Shown here piece by piece: positions 988 through 55,961 of a DNA stretch of 64,000 nucleotides. The notes below the pieces were generated by a model. The model did no database searches. It saw nothing but the letters and a program-made list of their open reading frames with translations, and was not told the DNA's origin. The translations under genes and the position numbers were made by a program. The first letter of the stretch is position 1, and every line of letters begins with the position of its first letter. Source of the stretch: Amoebophrya sp. A120 (Eukaryota > Protista > Dinoflagellata); contig CAJINV010000002.1 in NCBI GenBank assembly GCA_905178155.1, positions 2,378,162 through 2,442,161 of the forward strand, written 5' to 3'.

Positions 988-3900
988 TACCAGTTAAAAG
1001 CGCAAAACTCAGGCTGCGGGTCCACCTGGTCGCACCGTTTTTTCCTTTTGCACTCGTACGCCAGCGACTTGTCCCGGTTGATGAAGACCCCCCGGCAAAA
1101 TTTGTTTTGCGTAGTGTCCCACGGGTTGATAAGTTTCGGGGCATCCGCGTCAGACAGTGCTAGTTCTCTGGTTTGATGTTTCTTGGAAAGCAGTGTGGCG
1201 GGCGCAGCTTCTTCTGTAATTCCTCCATCTTCCGTGGAGCTTCCAGTCGTCGTTTCTGTTTTGCTCGAAGCAGAGCCTCCTCCCCTCCCCCGTAAAAAAC
1301 ACTTTTGCAATGTCCCGATTACATCTTGACTCTGCCGGATCGCCAAACCCCCCGAATCGCCACTATCATCCTCACAGAAATATTCGTTTTGCACGGCTTC
1401 TAAATCCGCGAACAAATCGTCGATCAACTGCCCCTTCCAGGATTCCACCTTGGCGATGAACTTGTCTTGCTGTTTCGGCGTAGCTAAATGTTCTTTCTCC
1501 ACAATCTCCTCCCCCTCTTTTTCCACTTCCTTCTCCGCCGGACCGCGGTTCAATAGCTCCTGGTACGCGAGTTCCAACTTCTCCTGGTAAGACAAAGTCG
1601 AAGTGGTGGTCGTGGTAGTTGTCGTGGTTGTTGTGTTCATCTGTAGTTCCGCGTCCAGCATTTCCGACGGGTCTTTGATCTCCCTGGGCGTGGTATCGCA
1701 AGAAAAAACTGCTTCACTGTAAACTTGTAAAAATGCAGAAAATGCATCGCAGCAGTGTTTGTGTTGCTACACATGTTGCAAGACAAGTGATTTTTAGCCG
1801 TGTTTTCCCTTGGCATCCTCGCATGGCAAGTTTTCTTCGTCACGTGTAACGAACTTGTGATGCAAAACTTGCAAAATCATCACAGTGAAACACTGTTTTC
1901 GTACGATACGTGGCCAAGGACTCCGTTCCTTCCTCCGTTGTTTTCCGTACCAAAAACCACTTCTGCTTGCAGTCCGGCTGCTGCGCCCCGTATTCTAATT
2001 CGTACATCGCGCACTTCTTTATCCCTGGGGAGACAACCTCATCCAGTCCGTTTCCGCACTTGTAGCCGAGGGTCTTTTCTGGATTGACGAAAACCCCGCT
2101 GCAACCACTCTCGTCCAATAGACATTCGTGCATGAGAGCGCGAATGTTGGTAAAGAGGCTGGGGGCTGTACTGCCGAAGACAAAAGGCTTTTCGCAGTAG
2201 TATTCGCCCGTACTCGCGCCGGTGATGTTCAGTAAAGTTTCCACGTTGGCGAAGGAGGGAAGCTTGGAGGTTAAGTTGTTTGCCGTCACTGTGACGTTGA
2301 TTTGCTGCTGGGGAGAAATACTGGGAGAACTGTCAGGATCGGAGTCAGCTTCTGATGCTTCATCTGGAGACGCTTTATTTTCTGCCGGTTCTGTTCCAGC
2401 TTCCGCCGGTTCCTCTCCCGCCGCAGCGGGCGGGTCTTGCTTGCTCTTCTGGAGTTGCAGAAGTTTCGTGTTTGCTAATGTTCTACTTGATTTTCGTGTA
2501 GTTCTCTTTTTCCTTTCTAACTTTATCGCCTCTTCCCTATCTGCCTGCAGCAAGCTCAGCAATTCCTTTCTCCTTTTTTCCAAAGTGGCCACTTGGAACC
2601 GCAATGTCTCGGTTTTGTTTTGTTGGGCTGCTCCTCCTTGGGCGTCTGTAGGTGACTGTTGATCTGTTTTAATATTTCCTGAAGTTTCGTCATTTTTCGA
2701 AGCTGCAATCGCGGCTTTCTCCGCCTTTTCCCTCCTCTCCGCAGCGGCCTTTCTTGCGCTCTTCACAATGTCGTTCACCGCATCACGAAAACTGGCCCAG
2801 GCTTGCGACTTTTGCAACTCCTTTTCACTTTTTTTATTTGTCGCGAACCCCTTCGCGTCCGGGTCCGAGCCAGAGCCACTATCACCGTCCCCCATAGAAC
2901 TCATCTGCTCCAACTGCCCCGCTAAATCCGGGTTATCGAGCATGATCCCCGGGAGAAGAGTATTCCAAAACTGGTACTGCGCGTTGTGCGGCTCGAGCTT
3001 CGTGCCCGTTTCGGTGTCCAGGAGCACTTGCAGGTTGTTTTCGTCGTAGTCCATGGTTAGAATGGTCGCTTGTTTACTATCTTTGAAAGTTATAGGAGGA
3101 CCACCTGGGTCGTCGGACACCATCGTGAGGATTTTCGGGACTAAGAATTCGAAACCGCGGAATTGTTCGTTGAGATCCAGAGCCGTAGAGGTAGAAATTT
3201 TATCTCCGATATTTTGTCCTGGCTGTATCCTCTGCACCGCCGCCCGGAGAATGACCGTCAAGATGCTGCGCAACCGCGAGACGTGCAACACGATCTCGGT
3301 CGGGGGTTTATTTCCAGTAGTTGGTTCCGCGGTACTTCTTTGCCGATCAGTTTTTCTCGCGGCGAGTAAAGCAGTTGTTATCGGGTCGTCGGTACTCGAA
3401 GCCGATACGTCGCTTATCTCATCTCCTGCATCCTGCTCACCGGATATCGCTGTAGTTTCTGAATCTGAACCACTAGCACTCCTCGTCGCATTACTGACCG
3501 CCGCGGTTGAAGATGACGATGAGCTTTCGTTTCTTCCCATAAACCCGTGCTTTTTCAGATAGTCCTCCATTTTCGTGTAAAAAGGTTGGTACAGCTCCAT
3601 CATTTTACTCCCAATGTTCCGCTCTCCCGCGACAATCATTTGGTGCCGGTGCCGGTACACATGCACGTTGATCACCCGGTGATCTGGGATCGCCGTCGCT
3701 TTCACGGCGGAAAGAACCGAGTTTCGCAGGTGCTCGTTGACGCACGTGTTGAACTGTTCCAGCTGAATCGCTTGCGTGAAAAGGGCTAGTTGCTGCGTAG
3801 AAGAAGATTCTGCTTTACTACTACCAGGAGCAGGCGGGAGATCACGACTGTTTTCTTCTACATCACCCCCTTCCAGGCTGTCCACATCATGATCCTCTTC

Positions 3901-6900
3901 TTCATCAAACCCCGTTATCCGGTAGCAAATGTCCACATCCAAATCCCGCCCAAAGCCGTCGTTCCCCAGCCCCACCCGCGCGAACGCCGACTCGATGGCC
4001 TGCGCGGTGAGTTGTGTGGCCGGAGCGGAGTTCGCGGTGGCACTCCCGTCGATTTTTCGGCTGTACCCGAATAAGGGGTTCGGGTACATAGAATCCGGCG
4101 TGGGAATCAAGCCTGTCAAAGCGTTGCTGCCGCTGAACGTACCGCTTCCGGGAGCGGTTAGTGTACTGGGGAACACCTGACTCGGGTACCAGTCGGTACC
4201 AACCGAAGTTAGTCGCGCTGGCAACCCTTGCACACCGGCGATACTGGGGGGTAAATCCGCGCGAATGGAATCATATGCACTGCAAAAGTATCGTACTAGT
4301 AGTAAGCGCAATACAAATTAACTCAGCATGACAAATGGAATTTGTCATGCTGTTTTGCCTTGTGATGGAGATTTGTAGTGCATGACTGCGATTACTACGA
4401 GTACGATACTTTTGCACAGGATAAGTCCCCGTCGGAGCTGCTGTACGCTTCTTCGGAAAAGGGGCCCGGGAGTTCGTCGAGATCGGCTTTGGAGGTGGAA
4501 ACTGGGGAGAGAAGACCGTCGGTGAAATCGAAATCGGATTTTGAAGCGGTGGAGGATGAGCTAGAGCTTCTGCCTAAGCCTATCTCACTCCCAAATTGCG
4601 TTTGCATCTGCATCTGCAGAAATTGCAAGTACTCCGCGGGTGGTGGCTGGCCTGCAGCTGTCCCTGTTGCACCCACATCACTAGTATCTCCAGATGCGCC
4701 GGCCGACACCGACGCGTCATTTGGTGCTCCTGCACTGCCATCACCATCGCCACTGTTTGTTTTCTCCAGCGTCTCGCTTGCCACCACCGGCTCTTTGTCA
4801 CCGTTGTCATTTTTGGACATCTCCACCCCACAAACCGCCTGACCAATGCGGATTCTAGGACCGCCGGGGTTGTTGAGGGTGCTACTACTTTTCGTGCTGC
4901 CTCTTGATGTGCTCCCACGAAACTCCTGTTGCCTCGCATCAAACATCTGCATCAAAGCTGCTGGCGCGCCAGCAGCTGGATCTTGTTGATTTGTTTCCGG
5001 GAACCCAAAACTCGTTTTCAAAACCGGTTTTGCCGGCTCCAGCTGCAACTATTGAGAGGAAAAATCCTCCCTCCCCATATCGAAAGTGTATGTTTCCGAA
5101 AATTTGTCTTGCTGATTTGAGACCACAAATCACGTCTGTCTTGCAAGAAGACAACTCTACAGGCTCTGCCGCATTATGCAGGCGGTTTGTGATGTTGTTG
5201 GGCCTACAGCATAGACGTTTCTCTTGCTAAGCGCCTAGGCCGAAACCTCTCTACTCAGGCTTCGCAGGAGCTTGTAGTCCTCTACTGCAAGACAAGCCTG
5301 ATTTGTATACGCAAATCCAGCATCAGAAACTTCCGTTTGATATGGGGAGGGGGGATTTTTCCTTGTGATAGCAACCCTAACTTCTTCGACGGAGGTTTTT
5401 TACTTGCTGATCCGTTTTCGTTGTCCCCATTCCCCTTCTCCTGTTGCTCTTGGTAGTGCTGTGACAGAAACTTCTGCATCTCTTCCTGCTTTATTGCCCG
5501 ATCGAAGTTCTTCTCCATAATGGATCGGTGATTCACGTATGCATTGCAAATATGTCAGTCTGGGTCTGGAAGAGAGCGCTTGTTTGGCATGCATGTTTTG
5601 CATGACCCATGATGTCTGTGATGCATGCCCTAGCATCACAGATGTTTTGAGGGCTTCCTCATCCCTAATCCGCATGACAAATGCCCTCGTCTACTCCGCG
5701 TAGCAAGAACAGGACTTCGCTTGCTGCTCATGCAATACAGTTGTTCTTTGGAATCGAAACGCAGCATCACAAGTTGTATCCTTCCAGACCCAGACATATT
5801 TGCAATGCATATCACGTGCGTGCTGTTGATTTGGTTTTCGTTTTGGGTAAAATCAATCATCAGATCCCCCGTGATTATGACCTGCAAAAGTATCGTATTC
5901 GTATAAATGCATTACAAATTTCCTCAGCATGAGAAATAAAATTTGTAATGCGGATCCGGATTTGCCTTGAGAACAAGATTTGTAATGCATGATTGCAATA
6001 CGAGTGCGATACTTTTGCACAGGATAGTGATCTCGTCCGCACGATGTACGTCGTAGGAGCAGAAATCCACGATCGCACGGGGCTGTCGATTTGTAGCACT
6101 GCGCTGCATCGGTTCTCTCTGTACAAAAGCGTCCAACGCAAATTGCACCGCGAGAGAGATTATCAAATGTAAAAATGTCTGGGTCTGGAAAAGTGTAGAC
6201 TTGTCATGCACATTTTCCATGACCCATGAGGTCTGGAATGCGGGACTTAGCATGACAGACTCTGCGGAGTCTCTGTCATGTCTATCCTGCATGAGAAACT
6301 CCCTTCCAACTTGGTCAAAAGTGTACAGCTTTTGGCACTCATGCAACAGAGATTTTTGCATGCTTCAGATTTACCATGACAAGTTGCAATCTTCCAGACA
6401 TCCAGACATTTTTGCAATTCATAGAGATTTTTTCGCAGAAAATCCTCCTGTCGTTCGGTGCGTATCCTGATTAAAAACGTCCCCACACCAGAGTCAAGAT
6501 GGGGACTTTGCAACACAAACCTAGGAGTTTTGGGAATCACGCATGACAAGTTTCAGTCCGTAAGGTAGTGCAAGTTAGCAAGGAAAGCCGCATCACAAAT
6601 CGATCTGCTGATCCTGTTTACAGCATTACAAGTTCCCAAACACGATTGAAAATGCCTGTCATGGGGTTGCGCATCACAACTATTCCTGTCATGGCAAATC
6701 TGCATGACAACTCTGGGGTGGGGACGTTTTTACTCAGGATAGTGCGTCAGCGAGGTTCTGGATTTTCAGGGATAAAGCCCCCGTGAGCCGGTTTTTCCCG
6801 TCGTTTTTTGTGCATTGGTTCAGTTTCCTCTCCAGCGTAATAGCGATTCGGTCAATCGCGGCCTTGCGTTGGTTTTCCAGTCGTTCTTGCTCGGGGGTCA

Positions 6901-9900
6901 GGTAGTTGGTGGGGGTGATATTGTCCTGGTCTGACCCTGCCGGCGTCGCGCTCGTGCTTGTGGTAGGTGGTGGAGGGAAAAATATTTTCAACGACCGGGT
7001 GTCGTGTGGTGTTAGTGAGTCTTGCACTGACTTTGTCAACGCGCTTCAGGAAATAAGTACTTCAGCATGATAAAGGCGAAACCCAACTTCTCTTCTCCGC
7101 CGCACTGAATCTGCAAATTTTTGCAACACATGCAGGTGAAATATTAAACGTGCAACTAGTACTAACCCGCCTGTTGAACAAATTTTCCCATCCCATACAG
7201 GTGTCGTGAAATTCAACAGCAGTGCCTGCGCTGTCACCTGATCGGAGTTCACAGGCATTAACGGGAGCTGCACCGGATACTCCTTCGCTGTTGTTGACTT
7301 TTCTTCTCCTTGTGCACTGGTGTCACTTCCTCCCGCATCCTCTTTTTCACGTCCCAACATCTTCGTCCTCGTGGTCTCCTCTCGCAGATTCCGCAGTGCT
7401 TCGGTGAAGGAAAGGAGCGCTTGCGGTTCTTTATTCGGGTTAATATTTGGTACCGATGGTCGTACTCTTGATGCAACCTGCGAAGCAGTAGAATCTGATG
7501 CACCTTTCATCGATGCAGTATGAATTTCAGAAGCTTTATCCCCCACGCCCGCACTTGCTGGTATCGTGGTTTTCGTCCTCTTCGCAGCCAATTTTGCGCC
7601 TGCCTTCGGATCTGACACAGCAGCGTCCGTTGGTTGTGGTGGTATTTCGTTGCAAACAAACTCCCCTACCGGTGACACGGCGGAAGAATATGTGCTGTCT
7701 ACCGACGTTTTTGAGCTGTTAGTAATCTTCTCTGCCGTTGCGTTAGTACTGTCGGTGTCGCCCGACGCGCTACCACCGGTACTGCTACCCAAAACATCAG
7801 TATTCTGTGGTTTAAAGCTGCTACGGTCGAAAAACTGTTGTCTTTTTCTCACCGCGTTTTCCTCCAATTTTGCGTTTACCAGCGCCGGTTGCATATCAAA
7901 TGTAAAAATGTCTGGGCCTGGAAACTTGTGATGCTGGGTGGCGTCTCATGATGAGGCCACAAGTGCTGGCTCAGCATGACAAGTTTCTGAGCTTCTAGGT
8001 GTTGCCTACTTATTCTGCATGACAAACTGCGTTTCTGCATCACAGAAAAATGGAGCTCCTGGGTAACGTGCATGACAGACTTAAGAGTCATGCCAGACAA
8101 GCATGACAAACATGCACTCTTCCAGACCCAGACATTTTTGCATTTGATATTGCAACTTCTCGAACAACTCCTCATCCTCAGCACTCGCGGCTCCGTCTTG
8201 CGAGGAGTAGCTGAAGTCCATCCTTTCCTCCAGCTCGCAAGCGCTGCAGACCGCCGCGCTCTTCTGCCAACAAACGTTCTTCGCCCGTTCCGGGCGCAGG
8301 CCGCATATGAAATGTAAAAATGTCTGGGTCTGGAAGATTGCAACTTGTCATGCTAAATTTTTTTTTTTTTTGCTAGGCTTCTCGCGTGTCGATTTGAAAT
8401 TCTTTTGATTTTTCTTTTGGTTTTCTTTTGATTTTTCTTTTGATTTTTCTTTTCATTTTTCTTTTGATTTTTCTTTTGATTTTTCTCTTGATTTTTCTCT
8501 TGATTTTTCTTTTAATTTTTCTTTTGATTTTTCTTTTTGTTGATATTTTCTTTTGATTTTTTGGTATTTCTTTTCGTTTTTCCTTTGTCTCGACACACAA
8601 AAAGCGGTGGGCGATTCACGAAGAAGTGCGCGGGTGTGCTCGGCGTTCCCGTGGCCTTAGGCCCTACCTTTTGGATAAAAGCTGCCGCTCCTCCTCCCCA
8701 CGTCTCTTCCTTTCGCCATTGCCATCACTCCATTCATGGCCGACAGTTCCACTTCTCGCACGTCATCTGCATCCCTCCACAGAGATTTGTGAATCCTCTT
8801 CGGCCTGCGCAGTAGCAACGAAAAAGCAGTGTGCCAACCTGGCGGAGATTTACGCACTGACGCCTGCCCCCACATCTTGTTCTTGGAAGGATGTCCAATA
8901 TTTACACTTACATCTTGATATCATGGAAAACATAGAGAAATCAACTATTTATTTCTATGTTGGTAAAAATGAAAGCGGAATAGAATAGAAAGCAAACTAT
9001 ACTACTTTGGTGCTGCAGGCAACTAATAGTTCTGAAGACAGGGCAGAAAAAAGCTCTTCTGTAGTGCAAGGAGGTCAGTACTAAGTAACTTTCCTACAAA
9101 ATCCTTGGAAATTCAACTACTCAGGACTATATACGACTCATTTTTTTTGCTCAACAAGTACTACCTTTTCACTACTACCACCTCCTTTCTCCATCTCAGC
9201 CTGTCCCTGTTTTTATTTCTTTTTGAATGGAAAGTTACGAGCAACAGGCAAAAAAACGCCTGTATTTAGGACGAACAGCAAACTACGAACCTGTCTGCGA
9301 AGTTACCAGGTGCTACGATGACGAATTCACGAATGACGACTTATTTTCTTTCGCGCGACGATTAGGCTGAGGAATGGGTCTGCTTAAAAATACCAGGTCA
9401 CTGTCCATGTGTTTACTAGTACCAGGGGACCAGGCAGCCACGTAGCTCATTAGGTACAAGGTTACTCTATGCCGCTGATTGGTACAGTTCTATTCTAAAT
9501 CTTCAGCGATGAGCAAACGCTCCACCTAGGTCTGGCTTTATGGGGTTCCCTTTATATTGGTGCACGTTGCGGGCTTCGCAGCAGGGACCTGTTGTTTTAT
9601 GCATTTTTGATTTTCATTGAGTTGTTTGCTCGAGGATGTTATCTGACTTAGCATCATGATCTCAACTACCATCTATATGTTCATCATACACAAGCAGGCA
9701 CTAACAAAAAACACGAACCTCCGATCTGCAAATCTATTGCCATCAAATAGCTCCATAGTCATTATTTTTATATACCTGGTATCTTCCTTTCTTCACTTTC
9801 CCCCTCCTCAGCCCAGCTTTTCGCACGATGTAGTACTGGTCGTTTTTCTTTTTCTTTTGGGATCTCGTCGCTTCATAAACAAAAAGGAGAGGATTTGATT

Positions 9901-12900
9901 TGCAGAGAACCTGGGGAATTTAATTTTTTGTGACTCAAGGCATCTAGTGGCGCGTCAATCAAGATACTTCATCGGAATGGCATCAGTAAATACCTTCAAA
10001 TTGCTCATTCTATTTAGTTTCTTATACACATTGTCGATCTTGGTGTGCTGCTTTGGAATTCGTTCCATTGTGTGCCCTATTTCATCGACACATCCCTTCA
10101 CCCTATCTCGAAAGAACTCATGCGTTAACTTTGCCTCTTCGTCCACTATAAGACGCATGATTTTCTGCGGCTGTTTTAGTAAGCTGCGCCCGAACTTGTC
10201 ATGCTAAATCTGCAGCATGCAAAAATCTGTGTTGCATGATTACCAAAAGTCGCCCAATTTTGACCAAGTCGGGAGGTAGTTTCTCATGCAGGATAGGCAT
10301 TAGAAAGCTCTCGCAGAATCTGTCATGCTAGCTCCGGCATTCCAGACCTCATGGGTCATGGAAAAACTGCATGACAAATCGCGCATTCTTCCAGACCCAG
10401 ACATTTTTACATTTGATACCGCAGTAGTCAAACGCAAACAGGTCGAAGTCGTTGGAGTCGTAGGGGTTGCAACCGGAGCTGACGTCGTCGAGGGTGTGGA
10501 AATACTCGTCGCTGCATATGCAATACAAATTTCCCGTACATGTACAAAATGCATCACAAATTTCACCAACCTAGAAGAAGTTACTTGTCATGCTGAAGAG
10601 GTTTGAAGGAAAAGTTTGTCATGCGGAAGCCACATTTGTACGTCGTGTACAGGAAATTTACTGTGGATACTGCAGGCGAGATCTTCCTCCGGTTTGTTGA
10701 AATACCGGTACACAATGCTGTCGTACATGAAACTGCACACGTCGTAGCGTTATGCAGTGCAAATCTGTCTGGGTTTGGAATCCTGTGATGCTGATTTGCT
10801 GCTGATTGCAACGCTTGCCACGGCAGCCAAGCATGACAAGTTTTTGAAACGCTTCCTGATGTCTAGCACGCATTACAAATTGCGTTTTCGCATGGAAAAG
10901 GAAGTGGCTCTTCTGCTGCTCACGCAACACAGATTTTGATTTTCTAGGAATGCTGCAAAATACGCATATACAAGTTCAAGTTCCACTTTTCCAGACCCCG
11001 ACATATTTGCAGTTGATAAGCGTAGGCAATCCCGGCCCCAGTTCGAGCACTGCACCGACTTGGTGTCGCTGGCGATGCAGCCCTGTCCGCACCGGCCCAT
11101 ACAGGAGTTGTCGGAGAGAATCGTGTCGATTGCGAAATCCTGCACGTCCACGTCTTCGGGAGCAAGAAACTTTGTAGTCATCATGGCCCTTCTGCTCTCC
11201 TCCTGTTGCAAAAGAACCACGCCTTCAAGTTGATCACCACGACCTCCTGGCGCTCTTGTTGTATTAGCCGACGAGGACGAGACGCTGCTATCAAGTGTAA
11301 AAATGTCTGGGTCTGGAAGATTCTGACACTTGTCATGCACGTTTTGCATGAGCCATGATGTCTGTAATGCATACCCTGGCAATACAGATTTCTTCAGGGC
11401 TTCTTGATGCCTATTCCGCATGACAAACGCCTTCTCAGCGTAGCAAAAATTGCATTCCCTTTGGTACTCATGCAATACAGGTTTTTTTGGAATCCAACTG
11501 CAGCATCACAAGTTGCAACCTTCCAGACCCAGACACTTTTACAGTTGATAGCTACTTGTCGTCGTAGAATTGTTCGCACTGTCGTCTTATCAAATGCAAA
11601 AATGTCTGGGTCTGGAAGAATTTGTCGTGCAGATTGTACATGACATGTGACGTCTGTAATGCATAACCTCGCATAACAGATTTTTAGCGGGCTTTCTGAT
11701 GCCTATCCCGCATGAGAAGTACCCTCTCCATGTAGCACAAACTGGACCCCTCTTGCTGGTCATGCAATACAGATTTTTTTAGAATGCAGAGACAGCATCA
11801 CAAGTTGCAATCTTCCAGACCCAGACATTTTTGCATTTGATACGTCTGTGTCTATCTCCGCGCCCGCATCCGCCTCCGTCGGTGCCGGGGTTGTGATGCT
11901 GCCATTATCGTCATGTTCTTGGCGCGGCGGGGGAAAAAACTTCTTCGCGACTTGCACCGAGTTCACGGGCACCTCTTCCAGGCCCCAGCACTCTATCCTG
12001 AGAAAAAAGTGTTACAGTTTGTTACAGACTCTGATGGAAGACAGGCAAGACAGACGACCTTTGTCATGCAGGAAATGCTTGCCAGCTTCATTTCATTCGT
12101 GTTTTCCCTTATAGTCTGCGCATCACAGGTTTTCTTTGCCATGCCGGCGACTTTGTGATGGAGAAAGAACTCCAACAAATGTGTAACTGTAACACTTTCA
12201 TTTTCCTGTGATACACTCTCCGGCCCGCATGGTGACCTCGTAGCAGATTTCCGGGCAAGAGCGTCGAGATGAAGCAGCAGCGTCTTCTTGCTTTGCATCG
12301 GAAAGATCCTCCGTCGTGGTTCCACTTGGCGTGGAGGTCGTTTTCCCGAGTTTTCGCCCCGTTTCGATGCACGGCCCGTTGAGTTCGCCCAGGTGGGGCA
12401 GGCCCAACTCCGGCCCGGTGAATTGGACCACGTACTCCCGGTCATTCTCGTAAAAGTCCGTGAAAGGTTCTAACCGCTCGATGCTGCACACGGAGTTGGT
12501 GTTGGTATGTGATGCAGTGGTTCCATAATTATTTTGATCACCATCCCCAGATGAAAACTCGTTTTCTGAAGAGGAAGAACCCCCAGATTTGTTGTAGCTT
12601 GCCGGGATCAGAATCGACTCTGACGCAGAAGTACCGGAGGTGGTGGAGAAGAAACCACTAGGTGCTTGTTGCGCATTTGAACTTCTTCTTGATCTTCGAA
12701 ACCCGTCGAACAAGAACCCGCTGCTTCTGGTTTTTCTACTTCTCTTGTTCGAGTACGTGTGATCACCTCCAGCACCCCCATCAGCGAAGCTTCGTGCTTG
12801 CTGCAAAAGGCTCGTCTGTTCACCGTTCTGTTGTCCGCCTGCTTCTTCCGTGGCTACATCGTCGTTTTCTAACTCTTCTGCTGCTGGGTATGCGTTGGCA

Positions 12901-28193: not shown

Positions 28194-28361
28194 GGTGTTC
28201 ACTTGATGCTAGCTTGTTACTTCTCGCTAGTCTGACCTTAAATTCGTGTCCAAATAAAGAATGCTGTAAGTAACGACATACAGGACCACGGCTTTTGCAA
28301 AAACATGTATTCCACACGGCACAGCGTCGGCTTCGAATCTCGAGCGCGACCGCAAAAGACC

Positions 28362-28366
<5 letters not shown>

Positions 28367-28396
<30 letters not shown>
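28367..28396 (+). repeat. (AG)15 microsatellite
   Basis: Seen directly, upstream of the methyltransferase gene. Confidence 0.95.
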
Positions 28397-28398
<2 letters not shown>

Positions 28399-34364: not shown

Positions 34365-34977
34365 CTTTATTCCGTTTCCTCTCGACGAACGTGGGTGGTC
34401 AACGGCGGTCGCAATATTATGTACAGCGTACTTAGGTTTTCATTTTGAACAACGGCGGCGGCAAAAGACCCTCCTTCGATAAGTCCAACTGACGAAGAAG
34501 TTGCAGCCACCTACACTTGATACTAGACGATCAAGAAATACAATTTGTTATCGGGCTTCGGCTTCGCGACCACTGCGAAACACATGAAACCCAAGCAAGT
34601 CGGGCTCAAGGCTGGTTTTAATTGAATTATCTTCCTCTGACACAGGTCGCTCTGAACAAGCCAACAAGAGAACTGAAAAACAAGACAGAATTTGCAAACG
34701 TCTTGAGGTGAATAAGTTTCGGCTGCTGTGGGCTCTTGATGACGTTGAAACAGTTCTTGTTCTTCTTTCACTTGTGCATTATCAAAGTAGAGCAGCGTCG
34801 TAATAGACTATGACCACACGAGACACGTTTCATTGGAAACAACGCAACGTTGAGGCCCTCGTACCGAACTCCGAAGAAGATTTCAGCACATCTACAAATC
34901 GGCAACGGGCAGAACAAGAAGTTCCTTACGTGGAAAGAACTTCATTTCCTCTCTTCAGACCAACACGCTGGAACAGC

Positions 34978-42882: not shown

Positions 42883-45800
42883 TCACTGGCCATCGAACAA
42901 CACGTCCTCCTCGACTGCGGGCGCGTCTTGTTGCTCTATCGTGAGGAAAAATCCCCCCTCCCCATATCGGACAGGAAATTCGTGACGCTGGACTTGCGCA
43001 CAGAAATCAGTTTGTATTGCTAGAATGGAAAGAGCCGCAGCTGCGGCCTTCATTGCAGGTAATTTGTCATGCTGTTTGCCACTTCCAGTTGCCTCCTGTC
43101 ATGCTGAAGATGCAAGGCTTTGTCACGCCAGCCAGCACGACAGTCCGCATCTTTTGTCTTCTAGCATGACAACATGATTTGCGGCCACAAATCAGCATCA
43201 CAAATTTCCAGCTTGAGTATGTGGTGGGGGGATTTTTCCTTTTGATATGCTCCCCGTTCAGCTCCAACATCGCCGAGAATTTGAGGTCCATCGCTATCGC
43301 ACGAAAAAATCATGGGTTTCACTCTCACTGCGATGCTCATGATTTTGCAAAATGATCTGCATTACAACAATTTCATCACCCTACATGACTCACAAAATCA
43401 GCTATGAGTGCCTCCTAAAGGAAAACAAGACTATTTGGTGCTACCCCGCTTCTCGCATTTCTAGCAAGATACAAAGTTTCGTCTTGCATGTCGAGTCAGC
43501 CCTGCATCAAAGGTAGTTTACAGCGGTGAAACAGTTTTTTCCGGCAATATTCTCATCCGCCGTACCCGCAGGCAACCCCACTCCCGCTCTCTCCGCTCCG
43601 TCGAAGGTGCCCGCCAGGGTGAAAACTCCGTGATCCCTGCTTGTTTTCCCGGTGTCCCCCGCCTGGTCGTTGTAGTTCTTCTTCTGGCCGGAGATCGTAA
43701 CCCGCTGGTTCAACATTTTCGTCGTGACAGCAGTCGAAGATGGAAGAGACGGTTGCTTGTCAAGAGCAGAGTGGTCTTCGCCGTCACCGTTTTCACCGTT
43801 CTTGTTCTCGCCGGCGGCGGAGGTTTGCTTCGTTTCTCCGATCCATTGCTCTCCGTCCGCAGTGGAAAAGTACTGGTCCGCCGTGGTGGTGGTAAAGGAG
43901 GATGCGCCACCGGAGGTGAGAGTTGCCGTGGCAGAAACAGTGGTCTTCGCCTGCGGGGGCACCGTCGCGGACAAAAGTTCTTGGAGCGGCGCAGTAGACG
44001 TGGACTCGGTTTCCAGTGTACTGGAGGATCGCGGAACCTCCACCCCTTTTCCGTCGTAATGTTCTTGAAGCAATTTTTTCAGGTGTTTGACGATCTCCTC
44101 CGTATGATGGGAGTGCGCGACAGCTTCCCCAGCTGCCCCTCCGACAATTGCCCCGGTCTCCATCAGATTGGTGAACCCGGGAATCTCAATCATGTGAGTG
44201 AAAAACGCGTCAATCACGTCCGTGTGGTGTTTCTGCGCTTTATGCGGGTTATTGTCCTTCTCGCGGTGACTGTGATGCTGATAGTCCAACAACAGGATTT
44301 TCTTGAGCAGTTCCCGTAGGACGTTTACCTTCCACTTATACATTTGAGCCCAGAATTCGCCGTGCGAAATCCCGTCCCGCATGCCGTTGTCGACAAAGAC
44401 AAAACGCGCACACTGATCGGATGGATCTGTCGGCTCACTGTACAGCCTGGCAACGAACGAAGTGATGAAGTTCGCAACGCGTATATTACAATGAAAAATA
44501 CCTCCACTCCCTATCAAAACGGAAATCTCTGATGCAGATTTGTGGTCACAGATCAGCTTTGTCATGCTAGAGGGAAAAAGATGCGGACTGTAGTGCTGGG
44601 TTGCGTGGGAAAGCCTTCCATCTTCAGCATGACAGGAGGCAGCTGGAAGTGAACAACAGCATGACAAATTGCCTGCAAACGAGGCCATAACTGCGGCTCT
44701 TGGCCTTCTAGCAAAGTCGATTTGTGTACTCAAATCCAGCACCACAAATTTCGTTTTCGATATGGGGAGGGGGGATTTTTCCTTTTGATAGCGCACGGGA
44801 ATGTGCTTGTTGTTGACATCGTGATCTATCGCGAGGTGGTGGCTCTTCACCTGCTTCAGCACCTTCTCCATGGTATGAAGAAACTTTTTCGGATCTCCTC
44901 TAATGTTCGCGTCGACAGCGTTCACGATCTCAATCGCCTGCGCCATCTGCTCGTCCGGACGTTCCCCGGCAAGGTGTTTACCCAAGAAGTAATTAGAAAT
45001 TTTTCCCGCATTGCCGTTCATGGCGTCGCGAAAGTCCTTCCTTGCTTTCTCGAAGAACGCCTCGGTCTTATAGAACTCGGCGAGTGTAGTTCCGTGCAGC
45101 GTGTAAGACACAGTATGCTTGCAAAACAACTACCACTACGTCACGTGGCCACTATTTAATCATATTTCTCCTGCTTCAGCTAGACAAAAAGAAAGGATGT
45201 TTTGACCTTAGCGTTGGCACAGCTGAGCCACGCATGACAAAGTCTAAATAGGCTCTTTGATCTTGATTCAATATGATTTTCTGATGCTCTACCGACGTTG
45301 GTTCGAATTCAAAAACATAAGTCCACATTCATACCCGTACCGAAAATGCAAACGACATTAACACAAGTTGTGAGGCGCTCATGCAATCCTGCACCCCAAC
45401 GGCTGTCCGAGTCCGCCCATTATATCGGAGTGGTAGATATGAGACACGAGTAAATGACGTACTTAAGTAGTAGACGTTTGCATTTGGTAAGCGACTTCAG
45501 AAAGCAATTTGTGTAGGTTGTCTTCACTGTGGGCGTGTTCCACTGCTTTGAGCTGCTGCTGATGATCGTGGTGCTGGTGCTTCACGTATTCCGCAACTGC
45601 TCGCAACAAAATTCCGTAGTTCTGCACTACCGCATCTGCGAGAACAGAGGTCGTTGTTGTCACACGATAGTAATGGTAGTCACCCTCCCAGGGCTTGCGC
45701 TCATTCCTCTCAAAGAACCGCAAAAAGGCGATGGGAATGTTGTGCCAGAGTAACTCCATCGGATTGCTTCGAGGTCTCGCTTTCCTACAGGTTGCAACTT

Positions 45801-47981: not shown

Positions 47982-50900
47982 TCAGTCGCCTCTGCCTAAA
48001 TATTGAATGGTGAGCGTGGCAGTGGGCCTTACTGCGGTGTAAACAGAAGATGTTGAATTTGAATTCTCATTAGCTTTCGACATAACAATTTTCGCCCTAT
48101 TACTCAAAAGTCTCTGCTGCTGAAACGCAGGATCTAGCAGCGACGCTGAACTTTGGAGTGGTGCGGGGTTTTGTCCTTCTGGGCGCTCTGGCTGCACCAG
48201 CGCACTCCCTGCATGATTTCTTGTCATGCTCATGCCTGCATGATTATGCGCGGCCAAGCGCCCACCAGCTGCTCCGCTGGGTTTCATGGTACTGTTGGAA
48301 GTGATCTTCATGGTCGTGTTTTTCATCATTCCGAAACCGCCCCCAGAACCTCGATTCGATGACGATGCCGAGGCCCTGCTCTGCGACAAAGCGTTCTCCA
48401 AATTGCCCACGTCCATCCGGGTATGCATTTCAAAAAACACTGTGGTGTACTGTGGTGCCCTCAAGCAGACCTGCGTCTGCCGACGTGCTAGTTGTTGACA
48501 TCCCGTGCTGATAGATTTAGACTGTGGTCTCTTTCTATATGCAACAAACTTTGACAAGAGCTAATACATGCTTCCTTCATTCTTTATTCGCCTTATTTTC
48601 ATTTTCATCTATTCTTTCGTGAATGCTACACCGCGAGAGCAAAACACTTAATTGATTGCCCCAGTGACAACATTACACAGCATTTTTTTCAGTTCCCGCT
48701 GATACTCTCGCGGATCCACTGTCAGCCCGAGCCGTTGTCCCCACTGCTATCGCACGAAAAAACCGTTTCACTGTGATGATTTTGCAAGATCTGCATAACA
48801 AGTTTGTTACACATGACAAAGAAAACTTGGCATGCGTGCTTCCTAAAGGAAAACACAGCTGAAAATCCAATGTCTTGCATGTGTAGCACGACAAACACAT
48901 TTGCGTTCCGTTCTATGCATCACAAGTTTACAGTGAAAAAGCTTTTTCTTGCGATAACTGCCGCTCATAGGTCAACGCCCGGCACTCCTTTTCGGCCAGG
49001 CTGTTGCAGTTTATGACTTGCTCATGTGCGTACGATCTCATGTTACGAATACAAATGGAGACTTGTGAGGCAAAGACTGAATGATCTGGCCGCCTCTCAC
49101 AGGACTTCTACACATGACAAGTTCTCGAGTCGCAAACCGCATGGGAATCGTCCGGCGAAACTTGTATTGCAAAAAGCGGAACCCCTGTGTGTCTGTCATG
49201 CTGCTCACGCAAGACATCAAAATCCAGATTCTATTGGAACAGCTGTTGAGATTGTAACTACACTTGAGCAGGTGATACAGTCCTGAAACAGTTTTTGGTA
49301 ATCCTGGAATTCCTGCAGCTTCTTCGAAAAAGTTGCGGAGAGTTGCGGCTCGTCACCCTCACTGCCAGAACGACCCTCGGAGTGACTATGTTGAAAAGGC
49401 TGTTGGTCTTCTTCACTGCTATTCCCCCCAAAAAGTACTTCCCCAACGTTGAGGTTTTCTCCCTTATCGTCGCTACCGTGACTGCCCCCCGAGGCGTCGC
49501 ACTTGATCTTTCGCAACACCGAGCTGGGCTGCAGGTACTGCGTCATGGAGGGATCCAGGGCGCGAAAGAAATCGTTCAGAAATTTGTTCCTGTCCTGCGC
49601 GACGCGTCGCGCCGAACTGGTGCCGTCGGCCTTCGCAGCGGTTGTTTCCGTCCTTTCCAACAGGAAACAAAACTCCTGGACCAGCTCTTCCCTATCGAAT
49701 TCAAATATGTCTGGGTCTGGAAGAGCGCAGACATTTGTGATGCAGTTCCGCCTAGCCCAGAACGTCTGGCATGCAAGCCCTAGGATCACAAATTCCGAGC
49801 AGGTATCCCAATGCCTAATCCGCTTGCCAAATGCCCCCTTTCTTCAACAGGAAATGGGACCTTTTGGTGACCATGCATGACAGATGTTGTCATGATGTAG
49901 AATTTGCATCACAAATTCGAATCCATCCCGACCACCCATATATATTTGCAATGCATACTCCCACAACTCGGCTGCTTCCGATTGTTCCCGCGTGGACACG
50001 AACAGAATTGCTTTTTCGACGTCCTGTAGATTCCGCAAAAAGATCTTCACGGCCTCTTTTGCGAGCCCCGCTTTGGACAACAAAAATACCAACGCGTCGT
50101 AGAGCTCGTGTTCCTTGCACAGCCCGATGGCGTGCTCAATGTAGGTCAAATTGGTCTGGTGATCCTGCAAGAAATCCAGAATTGCCTCCGAACTTGGATC
50201 CTCCTCGTAGTCTTCAGGAATAGCATTTTTGCTACTTCTTTTCCTGCTTCTATCGCTCGTATTCGCTGCGTTGCGCGAGCCACGGACGGGCTCAGGAACA
50301 GAATTATGCGTAACAGCTACTTGTTGCTCGCCAATTGTTCCCTTCTCTGGCAATTCATTATTCGCATTCTTAAACGCCGCCACGCTACCACTGGAAACGA
50401 CAACATCATGATCCTGCCCGATGCTTATTTTGCTGTCTTCCTCTATTTTCCGCGAAGGGGGGCGATTTTCATCCTCGGCAATTTCAATTTTCTTCTCCCT
50501 TATTGCCAGTTGTTTTTTCCGGCTTACACTCGCGTCGGCGACTAGCAACCGAAAGTGTTCGTCGTGGTATTCGCGAATGGCCGCGAAGTCCTTGACCTAT
50601 GGAATGCAAAAGCATCGCACTCGAACTCGTATAGATGCATTAGCATTACAAATTTCCTCAGCATTAGAAATAAAATTTGTAATGCGGATTCACCTCAAGA
50701 AAAAGATGCGTAATGCATGACTGCAATTACTACGAGTACGAAACTTTTGCAGTTCATATGACCCGCATCTGGTTGAAATACCGCAGTAAGAATTGGTTGA
50801 ATCCGTGTTTTTCTTCCTGATGTAGAATTCCACCGCGTCTGCTGCTCCCAGTTTCATCTACTGTCTTGGCGTCCTCCACCAGCCTCCTCAACCTCTCCAC

Positions 50901-53900
50901 GGTGTCTACCACCGGGAATAAACAAGCGGCACTGTCCACGAGAAACCCGACGCACAAGTCCGCGTCGAGCGTCAGCAGCGCTCGCAGATTCTCGAACACA
51001 AATCGGGTACACAGAGAAGTGGTTGTTGTTGTAGACCACGCCCTCGCCGCGCCATCCACGACACCAGCAGATGTTGTTGACCCGCCTTTGGTCAGCCGCC
51101 GGAGTAGCGAGAACACCCCGGTGACGGCCTGGTACTGCAACAGAACCTCCAGGGCGGGTTGAAACTGCTGTTTCTTCTCGTAAAGCAGCGCCAAACACTC
51201 CGCGGTCACCTGCGTGAAGTGCTGTGAGAAAATGTTGTCGCTTGTTGATGTTGCAGCTGTAGTACCAGAAACTGTAGTACTTTGAGTCTTGTCATGTGCT
51301 CCTGTTTTGTTCCCACGACCGCTCTGGTCCGGCTGCTTCTGCTGCTTATGCCGTAATAAACTAGCACTGCCGTGCTGCTCTAACTGGTTCTGCAGTAATA
51401 GCTGCAGCAAGTCGGTAGAATAAAGCTCGTCCACTTGCTCAACATTTTCTGCGCCATTCGGACCGCTTGCAACACCGACTTTTGACGCGCCGTTGGACTT
51501 AACCGTCAATCCCCAGGTAGAGAGCACCTCCAGCAGGGCCTTCGGGTAGGAAATCAGTCTTTGTAACACCATGTCGCACATGACCCGGTCCAGCTTCTCT
51601 GGATTGATCAAGGCTGCAACGCGGTGGATGCAGTTTCGCTCGAGGAAAATTTCCGTAATGGCTTGCTCCCAATTCTCCTCCGCACTAGCGGCCTCCTCGT
51701 AAATGTTTTGCGCGGTTGAAGATTCTGCTTCCTCTTCAAGATTTGTATTCACTGCCTGATTCAGATTCGACGTCGTGGTGCACAACATGACCAGCTGCTG
51801 CGCCCGTTCTTCGTTTTCGTTGGTGCCGCACCCGGCGAGGACCTGCTTCACCGCCTGGATTAGAACGCGGGACAGGCTCGGGTGAGATTCCTTCGCGAGC
51901 AGCAAGATCGCTTCCTCGTATCGGTTCTGCGCTTTTTCGCACAAGAAAAGCGCGTCTTCGAGTACGTCCCGGCGATGCACCCGGATGATGTCAGTCCCGC
52001 TTGTTCTGCTCGTCGTTTCAAAAGCAGTTGATGTTCTTTTCGATGATAAACCACCAAGAGTTGTCACCAGATCTGCAGCTTCTGTGTCGGTCACAAAAAT
52101 CACGCCGCAGGAAAACTCCTGCAGATGTGATTCCGGTGCGTCGTGGTGAATTATATTCGCAGCAGCTGCTCCCGTCTGGTCGTTCATCGTTCCATCAAAC
52201 ACCTGCTCGGATTCGTTCACGCAATACAGCACATTCACGTGGTGGCTCGTGCTCCCAGCAGAGTATTTTTTCGCGAGGTAGTTGTTCTGCTGCAACATCA
52301 TTTCCCTTGACCTTAACTCGGCGTCGCTGTGTCTCTCCTTGCAGAACAGCTTATCGGTGTGCAAGATACTCCGCGTTCGCAGGCTTACTAAATGATGGTT
52401 GACTTGATGCTCCTGGATTATAAACAGCGGGGAGCAGTCCTCGACGAGTGTTGTTCCAGCTCCTGCTGCTGCTTTTTGCGATGATCGCGTCGCCGAAACT
52501 GCTGGCTTATGCACGACTTGGCGTCCTCGTGAAGATGAAAAGGGACTGCTGCTGCTTTCTTCCACTTCCATCGAGCTTGCAGGAAACACTCCACGGTCCG
52601 CCTCCGCGCCATTCGTCTCGGCACGAGGTGGTGGACCACCCCTCACGGCACCAGTGGAGTCGCCCAGAATCTTGACGCAAGGCCGCTGCCACGGTGGGGG
52701 CAGAAGCGCAGTTGTTGTCCTCGTGTCTTTGAATTGCGGGTCCTCTACATCTGTTTTTCTGGTACTAGAACCGACTCCGTAAACGACTTCATCCGCCGTC
52801 AAAACCAGCAAATCGCTCCGGACCCGCGGATCCGGCGCCAGCCCGACGATCTTGCTAGAGTAGAAAGGCAACGACGGAGAGGACAACACTGAAGAGGACA
52901 TCACACACTGTGCCAAATAATTCGCCGTCAGACTCATGTTCACAACCACCTCGCAGAAGTAGCTCACCGCTCCCCCGGACGACGACCCGTTCTGCCCGTT
53001 CAGATGTATTACAGTGAAAAATGCCCCGACCCCCAGAGTTGCAAGCATTTGTGATGCGAAGTTTCCAAATGAAAACTTTTTGTCATGCATGAAAGGAATA
53101 CGAATCTTTGTGATGCAGAGTCTAGGCGCATATAGCATTGCTTGCATGACAAGCGCCGCTCTTGCTGGGATCTTTTGCAATACAAATGTTCGCTATTCAC
53201 GATTGGGAATCTGTGATGCAGCTGGATGCAAGAGGGCGCATGTTTCACCTGGAAAGGTTTGCAATACAAATGCTCTCAAGTTCGGGGATGGGGGCATTTT
53301 TCATTGTAATAAGATGCGGGTTCTGTTCGCGGATTTTCGCCACTTTCAACTCCAAATTTTCGCCAATGCACAAAGTCCACCCGAAATCCAGCCAGAGGAG
53401 CACGGTGGGCGGGGGGGTTGATGGTGGAGGTGCTCCTGTTGGGACCTGTTGTGTAGATGAAGAGCTTGTTCCCCCCGGAACTGGTCCTGCTCCTGCTCCT
53501 CCTGTCAATGGGATAAACGCGATCTTCTGCATGGTCTTCGTGTGCAGCATATGCAATGCAAAAGCATCGTACTCGTGTAATATTAAACGCATTACAAATT
53601 ATATCCTCAGCATGAGAAAGTAAATTTGTAGTGCTGATTTACCTCAAGAAAAAAATTTGCAATGCATGATTGCAATACGAGTACGATACTTTTGCACAGG
53701 ATCCAGCAGTTTCACGCCCTTCTCCGTGGTCCAGGCCGCGATCTGCAGTTGGCCCCACTTGCAACTGCTTTGCCGTGCGTAGCTATTGAACACCGTTTTG
53801 GTGGTTTCTTGGTCGAACGAATTATGTCGGGCGGGGGTTGAATTTGGTTTTGGATTGTCCACATTGATCATATTATGCTTTTTGTTCATCTTACTGTAGA

Positions 53901-55961
53901 TCGTATCCAACACCTCCACCGTCGGATTCCGCACGGAGTGTTTCTTGCACAGCAAAACCTCGACTTTCGATTTGGTTCCGGTGGTCAAAACAAACCTGGG
54001 AAAAGCCCGGTCAATCATCGGGTCGGCGGCGCAGGAGAGGCACAGCCCAATCACGTCAATTTTCCAGAGCTGAATCGAGGGTTGCTCCACGTTCAAAACG
54101 ATGCACTCGTACAGCCCGGCGACAATCAGAAACTTGTGGTTCACGGAGAGGCAGGAAACCTCCTGCTCCAGGATCCTTCGAGAAAGGGAGGATGAGCTCG
54201 TCGTCGTAGAAGGGGTGGTTATCGTTATGGTTTTGATATTATGGTTGTGATCACCTTTATTCTGATGCATGTTGCTGTCCAGCACCGGTGACGCCCCCGC
54301 CGCGGGAGATGAAGAAGCATCACCATAGACAGCAGCTCCTTCGTGTACTAGTTCCCCTGTAGTTCCTGTCACCGACCCTACTAGACCGCCACGCGGAGAC
54401 GAGGCGGTTGACGCGGACACGACGCTCGCAGCAGTAGAGGCCGCGTCGTGCTGCGAGAGTACTTCCCCTTGTGCTGATATAATGTGGTGTCCACGTGCAA
54501 TAGAAACAATTGATGTCCCTGTAGTATTTATCCCGACCCCTTGCTCCGACGCGGTTGTGGTTTTCCAAATCGAATCCACGAAGTCGGACGGCACCTATCC
54601 TGAGTAAAAACGTACCCACCCCAGAGTTGTCATGCAGATTTGCCATGACAGGAACATTTGTGATGCGCAACCCCATGAGAGGCATTTCCAATCGTGTTTT
54701 GGAATTTGTGATGCTGTAAACAGGATCAGCAGGTCGATTTGTGACGCGGCTTTCCTTGCTAACTTGCACTACCTTACGGACTGAAACTTGTCATGCGTGA
54801 CTCACAAAACTCCTAGGTTTGTGTTGCAAAATCTCCATCCTGACTCTGGTGTGGGTACGTTTTTACTCAGGATAGCACCGGCGTTTGGTTTTGCGAGGAA
54901 CTGGAACTCTGCTGGGACGCGGTTTCGGCGTTATAAGCGCCCTATCCTGTGTAAAAACGTCCCCACCCCAGAGTTGTCATGCAAATCTGCATGCTGAAAA
55001 TGTTTCTCATGCGGAGCCACATGAGAAGCATTTTCCAGGTGTGTTCTGGAATTTGTCATGCTCCAATCGGCATGATATAGTAGATCTGTGATGCTGCTGA
55101 GCTAGCTCAAACAGCACTACACTACGAGCCCAAATTTGTCATGCAAAACGGCCAAAACTTGTGGATTTGTCTAGCCGAGTCCCGATCTTGACTATGGGGT
55201 GGGGACGTTTTTACATAGGATACGCCCTGCTGCTGGTTCTTATTTGGGACGTCTTGCAGCACATGATCAGCTGGAGGCGTGGAAGACGACTCCAGGTTAG
55301 CAGTGCCCAGCCTTGTCTGGCGCTCTACTTGATCCTCGTCCTGCGCAAGCACTACATTGCCTGCCAGGTCACCACCACTCCCGACGACCCCAGCACTCCC
55401 AACCGTTGGGAAAAAAACTTGGTGCTCCCAGAGCATGCGAAACCGGGAGTGGGTTAGCAAGTGCTTCACGTTTTTGCTCGTGCGCTGGGAAGTTTGCGAA
55501 GTAGATGCGGCTGTTGTAGTAGTGGAGGTGGGAACAGCAGCTGCATTACTGGTGATTGTCGGTGTAATATTTTTATCCCGCTCCAAAACCACCGGACTTG
55601 CGCCCGGAATGAGCGACGTGTCTTCAAACAGCTGCACATGCCCCGAAGCGCGACCGACCGCGACGAAGGCTTTACCTCCCAGGCTCACGCAGGAAACGTA
55701 ATCAGGGCTGTTGAACAAAGGTCGCGGAGAAGTTGTGAGGTTTGTTCCCTGCCGATGCTCCTCCCGCTGCTGTTGTTGTGTTTCCGCAGCTGTAGGGCTG
55801 CTGGAAGCTGCGCCAGACGTGGCAAGTCGTATCTCGTTATCGGCATCAGTATCGTCTACACTTGGTCTCGCAATGTCCTTGATGCGCAGGTAATCCACAC
55901 GAGGCAGCGGGTCTTTCTCCCCCGCCTGGCTGTGTGCAGGGGGGGGTCGGGCGACGGACAT
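47982..55961 (-). CDS. VPS41: Vacuolar protein sorting 41 homologue (HOPS subunit; WD40 plus clathrin heavy-chain repeat)
   Basis: VSCVSLGGKAFVAVGRASGHVQLF, WGQLQIAAWTTEKGVKLLD, RRDVLEDALFL...YEEAILL, ECLALLYEKKQQFQPAL and YIEHAIGLCKEHELYDALVFLLSKAG...DVEKAILF...ELWE match Vps41 architecture. Eight introners. Last exon uncertain. Confidence 0.8.
48748..48956. mobile_element. Family C introner
   Basis: C-type TIR, opposite orientation to 1694-1908; TSD actgc. Confidence 0.9.
49012..49277. mobile_element. Family K introner
   Basis: Homologous to 31610-31871; TSD cagtt/cagtc. Confidence 0.85.
49693..49957. mobile_element. Family A introner
   Basis: A-type TIR; TSD ttccc/ctccc. Confidence 0.85.
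50598..50758. mobile_element. Family B introner
   Basis: B-type TIR; TSD tgacc. Confidence 0.9.
53007..53311. mobile_element. Family L introner
   Basis: tattacagtgaaaaatgcccc...ggggcatttttcattgtaata; TSD agatg. Confidence 0.9.
53550..53703. mobile_element. Family B introner
   Basis: B-type TIR; right end ATC instead of ATA; TSD cagca. Confidence 0.88.
54596..54874. mobile_element. Family E introner (reverse complement of 6463-6741)
   Basis: E-type TIR; TSD gcacc. Confidence 0.9.
54943..55222. mobile_element. Family E introner
   Basis: E-type TIR; TSD cgccc. Confidence 0.9.

Follow-up and report, generated by a model that had tools for sequence, protein, structure and literature searches.

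The introners of the parasitic alga Amoebophrya sp. A120 are probably excised at a single constant distance from their TAT ends, as read from sequence and database gene models, and they share a spaced inner motif; we found no published report of either in the literature searched. The end motif is already published and by itself adds nothing beyond the 2021 paper: the available text of Farhat et al. 2021 (PMC7789003) describes A120 introners as non-canonical introns of about 240 nt in many families, with direct repeats of 3-5 nt and inverted ends made of TAT, seven variable bases and at least three As. At least 60% of Amoebophrya introns are spliced without GT-AG and without a detected U1.

The window, meaning the whole stretch of 64,000 nt analyzed here, carries elements that match this description by their inverted ends, by their direct repeats, by their use as repeated non-canonical introns (35/35 introns of four database proteins) and by their host, as 3/3 exon searches each gave one 100% match, to proteins named Amoebophrya sp. 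A120. Unlike in the published description, the repeat here is strictly 5 bp, one register fits and the elements share a spaced inner motif. The class, placed at 1694..55222 in a preliminary description, extends further, to 63809-63967.

Introners in the window (strand not assigned). Register 1+4 means cuts one base ahead of TAT and four bases past ATA; "informative" marks junctions with two unequal repeats.
1694..1908, introner, family C, CGTGG repeat on each side
4274..4423, introner, family B, repeat 3/5
5050..5370, introner, family D
5538..5811, introner, family A
5876..6026, introner, family B
6161..6423, introner, family A
6463..6741, introner, family E
7894..8149, introner, family A
10517..10669, introner, family I
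10751..11018, introner, family A
11289..11550, introner, family A
11588..11842, introner, family A
11994..12213, introner, family F
14648..14904, introner, family A
14959..15243, introner, family E
15519..15677, introner, family B
15753..15966, introner, family G
17198..17523, introner, family D
17689..17935, introner, family G-like
17981..18233, introner, family A
18282..18490, introner, family G
18775..19025, introner, family A
19070..19242, introner, family H
22257..22514, introner, family A, intron of P0002
22848..23150, introner, family A, intron of P0002
23191..23345, introner, family B, intron of P0002
23669..23818, introner, family B, intron of P0002
24836..25097, introner, family A, informative, registers 1+4 or 0+5
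25135..25385, introner, family A, informative
25445..25659, introner, family F, intron of P0002
25720..25864, introner, family B, intron of P0002
25908..26117, introner, family C, intron of P0002
26963..27160, decayed introner, found as P0002 intron, informative, 2+3 or 1+4
27377..27525, introner, family B, intron of P0002
27599..27862, introner, family A, intron of P0002
29300..29551, introner, family A
30836..31044, introner, family G
31610..31871, introner, J/K type, TCA or CCA at 11-13
31975..32280, introner, J/K type, TCA at 11-13
32598..32919, introner, family D
33419..33581, introner, family B
36890..37221, introner, A-like, decayed repeat, informative junction of P0003
37286..37572, introner, A-like, informative junction of P0003
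37616..37919, introner, family E, informative, 1+4 or 0+5
37973..38254, introner, family A, intron of P0003
38453..38700, introner, family A, informative, excludes 0+5
38893..39184, decayed introner, found as P0003 intron, informative
39347..39627, introner, family A, intron of P0003
39680..39992, introner, family E, informative
40104..40388, introner, family A-like, intron of P0003
40451..40704, introner, family A, intron of P0003
42937..43247, introner, family D, intron of P0004
43295..43549, introner, family C, informative junction of P0004
44484..44790, introner, family D, intron of P0004
45114..45489, strongly decayed introner, repeat 1/5, TAC/TAT-N7-AAA ends kept, informative, P0004
48422..48704, decayed introner, found as P0001 intron, informative, 1+4 or 0+5
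48748..48956, introner, family C, intron of P0001
49012..49277, introner, J/K type, informative junction of P0001
49693..49957, introner, family A, intron of P0001
50598..50758, introner, family B, intron of P0001
53007..53311, introner, family L, intron of P0001
53550..53703, introner, family B, gene-upstream end GAT, not TAT, still intron of P0001
54596..54874, introner, family E, intron of P0001
54943..55222, introner, family E, intron of P0001
63809..63967, introner, family B

Ends, direct repeats and inner motif

All ten terminal strings quoted in the preliminary description were found, each at the left end of an element (A 6161, B 4274, C 1694, D 5050, E 6463, F 11994, G 15753, H 19070, I 10517 and L 53007), and the TAT-N7-AAA motif was confirmed at 105/122 ends, with TAT-N7-AAAA at 84/122, in a 61-element catalogue built using a TAT/ATA filter. 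When inverted ends flanked by k-bp direct repeats were sought without requiring TAT, k=5 returned 36 hits, of which 33 begin with TAT, and TA starts were present at 128/130 ends. Across the window, matches with a 7-base spacer numbered 156, against 33 +/- 7 in 20 Markov shuffles; spacers of 8 and 9 were likewise high (131 and 91), which is expected because the A-tracts are longer than 3.

A family-weighted sequence logo of the window elements (15 clusters) gave 1.93-1.97 bits at positions 1-3, 0.09-0.69 at 4-10, 1.36-1.61 at 11-13 and 0.70 at 14. The claim of a fixed TAT and A-tract around variable bases was confirmed, with the two ends of an element agreeing in 56-60/61 elements at positions 1-3 and 11-13 and in 24-52/61 at 4-10. 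It needs amending at two points: the A-tract is conserved at 11-13, with A at position 14 in only 93/122 ends, and the N7 spacer is not free because position 4 is C or G in 114/122 ends and position 9 is G in 100/122. TCA at 11-13, ascribed to families J and K, was found at 5/6 of their ends, the end at 31871 reading CCA; these ends are without the A-tract.

Every element is flanked by 5-bp direct repeats, perfect at 5 bp in 39/61 elements and in 0-3 at every other length from 2 to 9, and other duplication lengths, TA duplication included, were ruled out by this fit at 5 bp only. The window elements showed no target-site preference or drift toward GT/AG except a mild G excess. Repeat mismatches at codon positions 1, 2 and 3 numbered 5, 7 and 14 (small counts). 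Old elements, with at least 2 mismatches in the repeat, retained TA at 20/20 ends, and AAA at 11-13 fell from 71/78 ends to 15/20 in these old elements.

The families had been taken as otherwise unrelated, which was not borne out; they are not wholly unrelated, as the motif GCAWBACA lies inside 60/61 elements (225 copies; 15.1 per kb within elements vs 0.8 outside) and its extension GCAWBACA(A/G) is common to all 12 clusters. Same-direction motif pairs 31-33 bp apart were present in 9/12 cluster representatives, a count that 0/2000 random placements equalled for any 3-nt window. Shared and phased, this motif is a probe for the missing transposase. End positions 4-13 seem to hold the inner 10-mer in eroded form, and at the left end of the family I element at 10517 TAT runs straight into an exact motif copy; against an eroded copy, the terminal fit was the best of 25 offsets yet negative (-6.4; background -17.6 +/- 7.1), and positions 1-10 read outward came nearly as close (-8.8).

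Host genes and the cut register

Elements lie within four genes of database proteins and two further open frames, all on the minus strand.
47985..55961, minus strand, host gene, P0001 (1910 aa, Vps41 TPR-like region), 9 introns, all introners
42886..45759, minus strand, host gene, P0004 (535 aa), 4 introns, all introners
36748..41595, minus strand, host gene, P0003 (640 aa), 10 introns, all introners
22169..28193, minus strand, host gene, P0002 (1135 aa), 12 introns, all introners
29661..34439, minus strand, open frame of 1164 codons, 5 elements + 5 bases each removed
912..7045, minus strand, open frame of 1482 codons, 7 elements + 5 bases each removed

Each of the 35 introns in P0001-P0004 is a TAY...RTA element, and the net removal is element+5. 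The same removal opened the minus-strand frame at 50/61 sites (element+4: 32; element+3: 28) and took the longest open reading frames from 825 to 1798/1482/1164/938 codons. Taking out element+2 or +8, a difference of one codon, gives the same open frames as +5 and was excluded by the 35/35 database-protein junctions. Because the elements are introns, splicing, and not transposition alone, may maintain their ends.

When we read the register from the database gene models, 1+4 was the only one that fitted all 13 informative junctions, and it fitted 34/34 scored junctions and the 35th, with five other registers fitting 24-31/34. Under uniform choice the probability of one given register in all 13 informative junctions is 1.3e-4, or ~8e-4 allowing for six registers (hand arithmetic); in 4/13 informative elements the ends were placed by eye once the protein was seen, and the other nine still intersect at 1+4 (P ~0.04, hand arithmetic). 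Both element orientations gave the same register polarity, and polarity of transcription is not separated here from that of the chromosome strand because all genes lie on one strand.

Unlike canonical U2 introns with GT...AG, introns in register 1+4 have the donors GT 21, CT 16, AT 16, TT 10 and GG 1, with acceptor AG in 4/64 and GT..AG together in 1/64. U at +2 is not absolute, because intron 53550-53703 starts GAT. A terminal stem forms in 52/65 predicted folds; G-U at positions 1-30 of the sense hairpin numbered 59 vs 60 for A-C, and this lack of G-U excess leaves selection on an RNA hairpin unsupported. Simulation under the aligner sliding rule in a random 5-bp repeat gave GT 28, GC 6, GA 4, AT 13, AG 31 and AC 22%, and published families 3 and 5 have GT 26-29, GC 5-6, GA 5-6, AT 15-17, AG 26-27 and AC 20%. 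Because simulated sliding gives such similar percentages, the published dinucleotide tables neither support nor oppose 1+4, and we dropped them as an argument against a fixed register. Farhat et al. (PMC7789003), whose gene models derive from transcript alignments and so lend the junctions indirect RNA support, treat the splice border as either variable or unknown, and the inner motif is absent from the available part of their text. A fixed 1+4 register is a rule that could be tested with existing RNA-seq on thousands of junctions and could mend gene prediction in the Amoebophrya A120 genome.

Spread and removal of the introners

On balance we favor, with some reserve, a reading in which one putative integrase-like transposase spreads the A120 introners and RNA removal takes place at a fixed offset from TAT. 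The putative transposase would cut at the TAT end, insert with a 5-base stagger and bind the repeated inner motif on one helix face, in keeping with the 31-33 bp spacing; end positions 4-13 would be a worn first copy of its binding site, whose 3' As would form the A-tract. Reading along the transcript, the host would cut the RNA one base ahead of TAT and four past ATA, which would restore the original exon exactly and leave every intron with an N-U-A start and a free last dinucleotide, and splicing would preserve the TA end of an inserted element while the rest decays. A shared mobilizing enzyme fits the 5-bp duplication, the shared ends, the inner motif at three helical turns and published family 38. 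To that extent the preliminary proposal of a bipartite site for one shared enzyme survives; that the elements are introns had been missed, and a simple two-part site is probably too narrow because positions 4-13 resemble a worn inner 10-mer.

Several observations weigh against parts of the favored reading. No transposase domain was found by Pfam in 46 of the 135 minus-strand ORFs of the window; Farhat et al. (PMC7789003), in the available text, report putative transposases in A25 only and argue against a general transposase-driven spread; and the available part of Gozashti et al. 2025 (PMC12130899) assigns A120 introners to several classes, namely non-LTR, LTR and diverse TIR types. The J/K ends without the A-tract and the GAT start at 53550-53703 also weigh against it. 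A more specific version, which is plausible though we lean slightly against it, has one end code serving two machines, an unclassified integrase-like transposase with TAT ends, a 5-bp stagger and binding sites in three-turn phase, and a U1-less splicing that measures 1+4, needs only U+2 and A+3 and pays no heed to G+1 or a terminal AG; the 'variable' splice sites in print would then be an aligner artefact. If so, each insertion would be exactly undone in mRNA at any target.

The end code could instead be mainly a splicing signal, with host RNA machinery reading TAT and the A-tract, so that elements of various origins that chance to carry both would survive in exons. The fixed and polar register would suit this, as would the survival of TA at all ends of old decayed elements (e.g. 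45114-45489), the published failure to detect U1 snRNA, which A120 appears to be without, the T at +2 in the predominant donors of both strains, and a comparable offset code in the available account of Euglena (PMC12501133). We nevertheless consider it unlikely, as conservation is equal at the two ends regardless of which one lies toward the gene start, the sense hairpin has no G-U excess, AAA at 11-13 drops in old elements, and the single repeat length in all families and the three-turn motif spacing would go unexplained. Simple homology, in which the ends are inherited remains of a single ancestral element with no present-day shared reader, draws on the merging of 47/61 elements into one cluster at a low threshold and on a motif lattice that could be inherited. 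With ends and motif copies masked, however, between-cluster scores were near chance (mean 17.0 vs 14.7, best 30; 11.7% above the null 99th percentile); short motifs survive where the sequence between them is lost, which points to constraint, not recent descent, and makes homology alone improbable.

Ciliate internal eliminated sequences have ends that resemble the TA-bounded ends seen here, and a comparable DNA-level removal in a life stage would accord with palindromic ends, exact exon restoration and the lack of visible selection on RNA pairing. We hold it to be very improbable, given a register that is asymmetric and independent of element orientation and elements that are present in the assembled DNA and published as RNA-seq-supported introns. 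Convergence of several unrelated transposon types on similar ends seems just as remote: it would agree with the classes of Gozashti et al. (PMC12130899), whose automated TSD calls run from 2 to 6 bp among the 38 of 58 rows listed, but in the window every one of the 12 clusters starts with TAT, has the 5-bp repeat and carries the inner motif.

Comparison with known transposons and introns

By size (145-376 bp), copy number (up to 23 per family), inverted ends and constant 5-bp repeat the elements resemble MITEs, non-autonomous TIR transposons; an Rfam search gave 0 matches. As described in the available parts of PMC10045372 and PMC2836005, IS3EU/GingerRoot elements have TA..TA termini and usually a 6-bp duplication, TDD-4/5 have a 5-bp duplication, both with an integrase-like enzyme, and Ginger1 and Ginger2 begin with TGT and duplicate 4 bp (Ginger1) or 4-5 bp (Ginger2/TDD). 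The window elements share the TA..TA termini of IS3EU/GingerRoot but none of the 61 is perfect at 6 bp; among Ginger1 and Ginger2/TDD their 5 bp fits only TDD-4/5, and TGT stands at 1/122 ends. TAT combined with 5 bp occurs in none of IS3EU/GingerRoot, Ginger1 and Ginger2/TDD as described there. A120 family 38 is annotated, in the available part of PMC12130899, as 'Ginger; 5-bp TSD, TA/TA Termini' with Copia/Gypsy-like ORFs and an integrase-like ORF; compared by description only, it is ~810 bp with ORFs, against the shorter window elements. The nonconventional introns of Euglena, as far as described in the available text of PMC12501133, resemble the window introns in their paired ends, fixed unequal distances to the exon borders and lack of GT-AG, and differ in lineage, which is unrelated, in motif (CDG/CH'G vs TAT/ATA) and in spacers (3 and 5-6 vs 1 and 4 here).

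Element ends and a shared inner motif

Scanning the window revealed at least 65 short elements with inverted ends (introners; 145-376 bp) that together occupy 16,003 bases. Our catalogue comprises 61 of them, with 55 found by scan (cut-off score 14, top score in shuffles 12, 2 nested false pairs removed) and 6 added by eye, and 4 further decayed elements beyond these 61 were recognised later as introns. Several fragments lie outside the catalogue:

847-987, 8306-8360, 10191-10418, 59981-60100, 62682-62883 and 63642-63685: truncated or one-ended copies of family A or B, partner end or repeat not found
19277-19542: probable extra decayed element with TAT ends, a 3/5 repeat and one inner motif

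The preliminary description had reported a TAT and A-tract code common to the ends of otherwise unrelated families, and this observation was confirmed, with TAT-N7-AAA at 105/122 ends of the catalogued elements, a count from a catalogue whose filter favoured TAT. The unbiased TAT count comes from a search for inverted ends between direct repeats that did not require TAT, in which 33 of 36 hits at 5 bp started with it. After family weighting, information reached 1.4-2.0 bits at positions 1-3 and 11-13 and 0.1-0.7 bits at positions 4-10, with C or G at position 4 in 114/122 ends and G at position 9 in 100/122. All ten end strings first quoted were recovered, as was the TCA exception of families J and K, and mismatches between the two ends of one element fell mostly at positions 4-10, as had been noted. 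The end motif itself is already known, because Farhat et al. (2021, PMC7789003) described it for the introners of Amoebophrya sp. A120, the class to which the window elements belong. Two testable additions go beyond it, namely a fixed cut register and a shared inner motif.

The inner motif, GCAWBACA, occurs in 225 copies in 60/61 elements, at 15.1 per kb inside versus 0.8 outside. Same-direction pairs within 100 bp were spaced 31-33 bp apart in 50/156 cases, and such a pair was present in 9/12 cluster representatives, a level reached by 0/2000 random placements for any 3-nt window. Terminal positions 4-13 were the top-scoring offset for this motif, with a weak average fit and an outward reading nearly as good; the match is exact in the elements starting at 10517 and 63809, and the spacing from the terminal copy to the next one is 30-31 bp in families B and I. 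Once ends and motifs were masked, clusters were barely more alike than shuffles, and they are therefore unrelated apart from the shared frame of ends and motifs. The families are thus "otherwise unrelated" in their masked interiors, but not in the inner motif that they have in common.

Introns, host genes and the cut register

The flanking direct repeat measures 5 bp, being perfect at that length in 39/61 elements versus 0-3 at other lengths, and removing each element plus 5 bases opened a minus-strand frame at 50/61 sites. The resulting ORFs reached 1798, 1482, 1164 and 938 codons, compared with a maximum of 825 in the raw sequence. Searches with three exons gave one hit apiece, at 100% identity and named Amoebophrya sp. 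A120, and a fourth gave an unnamed protein at 100%. Every intron of these four proteins (35/35) is an element of this class. All long reading frames of the window are on the minus strand, in agreement with the unidirectional gene clusters reported in Amoebophrya. ORFs at 19900-20691 and 56543-58612 (minus strand), which carry a serine aminopeptidase S33 domain and a rhomboid domain, contain no catalogued introner. Six consecutive elements at 17006-19242 show no restored ORF of at least 200 codons across them, and this stretch may be untranslated or may belong to a gene whose other introns escaped detection.

With identical 5-bp copies, any of six cut positions yields the same mRNA, and with unequal copies the protein reveals which bases were retained. 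Removal starting one base before TAT and ending four bases after ATA (register 1+4) was consistent with 34/34 scored junctions and with the 35th, compared with 24-31/34 for other registers. Among the 13 informative junctions, five ruled out 0+5 and four ruled out 2+3, with a joint chance of 1.3e-4 for a given register and about 8e-4 for any of six. The nine that are left without four elements delimited after seeing the protein still intersect at 1+4 (about 0.04, hand arithmetic), and informative junctions from families A and E occur in both element orientations. A fixed 1+4 register would add to the known description, with indirect support because the proteins are gene models, themselves built from transcript alignments according to the text of PMC7789003.

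Under this register the donor is N-T in 63/64 elements and the acceptor is free. The element at 53550-53703 has GAT in place of TAT at its gene-upstream end, yet is removed in P0001, one of the four proteins. The text of PMC7789003 marks the exon/intron border in A120 as variable or unknown, gives predominant donors (Table S4) as only N-T in A120 and TT in the second strain, A25, and mentions four bases of the repeat located upstream of the 5' end, a remark that may point to the same register. A sliding-aligner simulation on random 5-bp repeats roughly reproduced the published dinucleotide counts, so these do not argue against a fixed register. Neither the 1+4 register nor the inner motif was found described in the literature searched, including the text of PMC7789003 (its figures 3 and S19-S25 may show either; most subscription journals lay outside the search), nor in the portions covered of the review PMC11282704, of PMC12005148, whose strain has canonical introns, or of the reference-list matches in PMC9860276.

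Splicing, transposition and a candidate enzyme

After insertion the host would have to remove each element, and in Euglena paired ends are, by analogy, read at fixed unequal offsets (as excerpted from PMC12501133). Among ten elements with at least two repeat mismatches, four of them delimited by their TA ends, TA was retained at 20/20 ends while AAA fell to 15/20 and inner motifs halved, which suggests that TA may be held by splicing and the A-tract and motif lattice by transposition. RNA pairing showed no sign of selection (G-U 59 versus A-C 60).

The constant 5-bp duplication, the few invariant bases at the ends and the phased inner motif copies seen here are the traces expected of one DDE transposase, and a single putative enzyme shared by all families, as proposed in the preliminary description, is plausible, if incomplete as an account. 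Our best lead for the enzyme comes from Gozashti et al. (2025, PMC12130899; 38 of 58 A120 rows covered), who list one A120 family as 'Ginger; 5-bp TSD, TA/TA Termini' and report inverted repeats and Copia/Gypsy-like ORFs in it. Against this lead, Farhat et al. report putative transposases only in A25 in the text of PMC7789003, and none was found in the 46 of 135 minus-strand ORFs scanned in the window. Nor do the window elements fit cleanly into described groups, as Ginger has TGT rather than TAT ends and IS3EU/GingerRoot a 6-bp rather than 5-bp duplication (passages of PMC10045372 and PMC2836005).

The window also holds repeats of other kinds:

217-372: tandem array of a 12-13-bp G-rich unit
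8362-8589: tandem array of a 12-bp T-rich unit, immediately following a one-ended copy of family A
31884-31973 with 32378-32470: two-copy short repeat, not an introner
32326-32374 with 32509-32557: two-copy short repeat, not an introner
34928-34981 with 36171-36229: two-copy short repeat, not an introner
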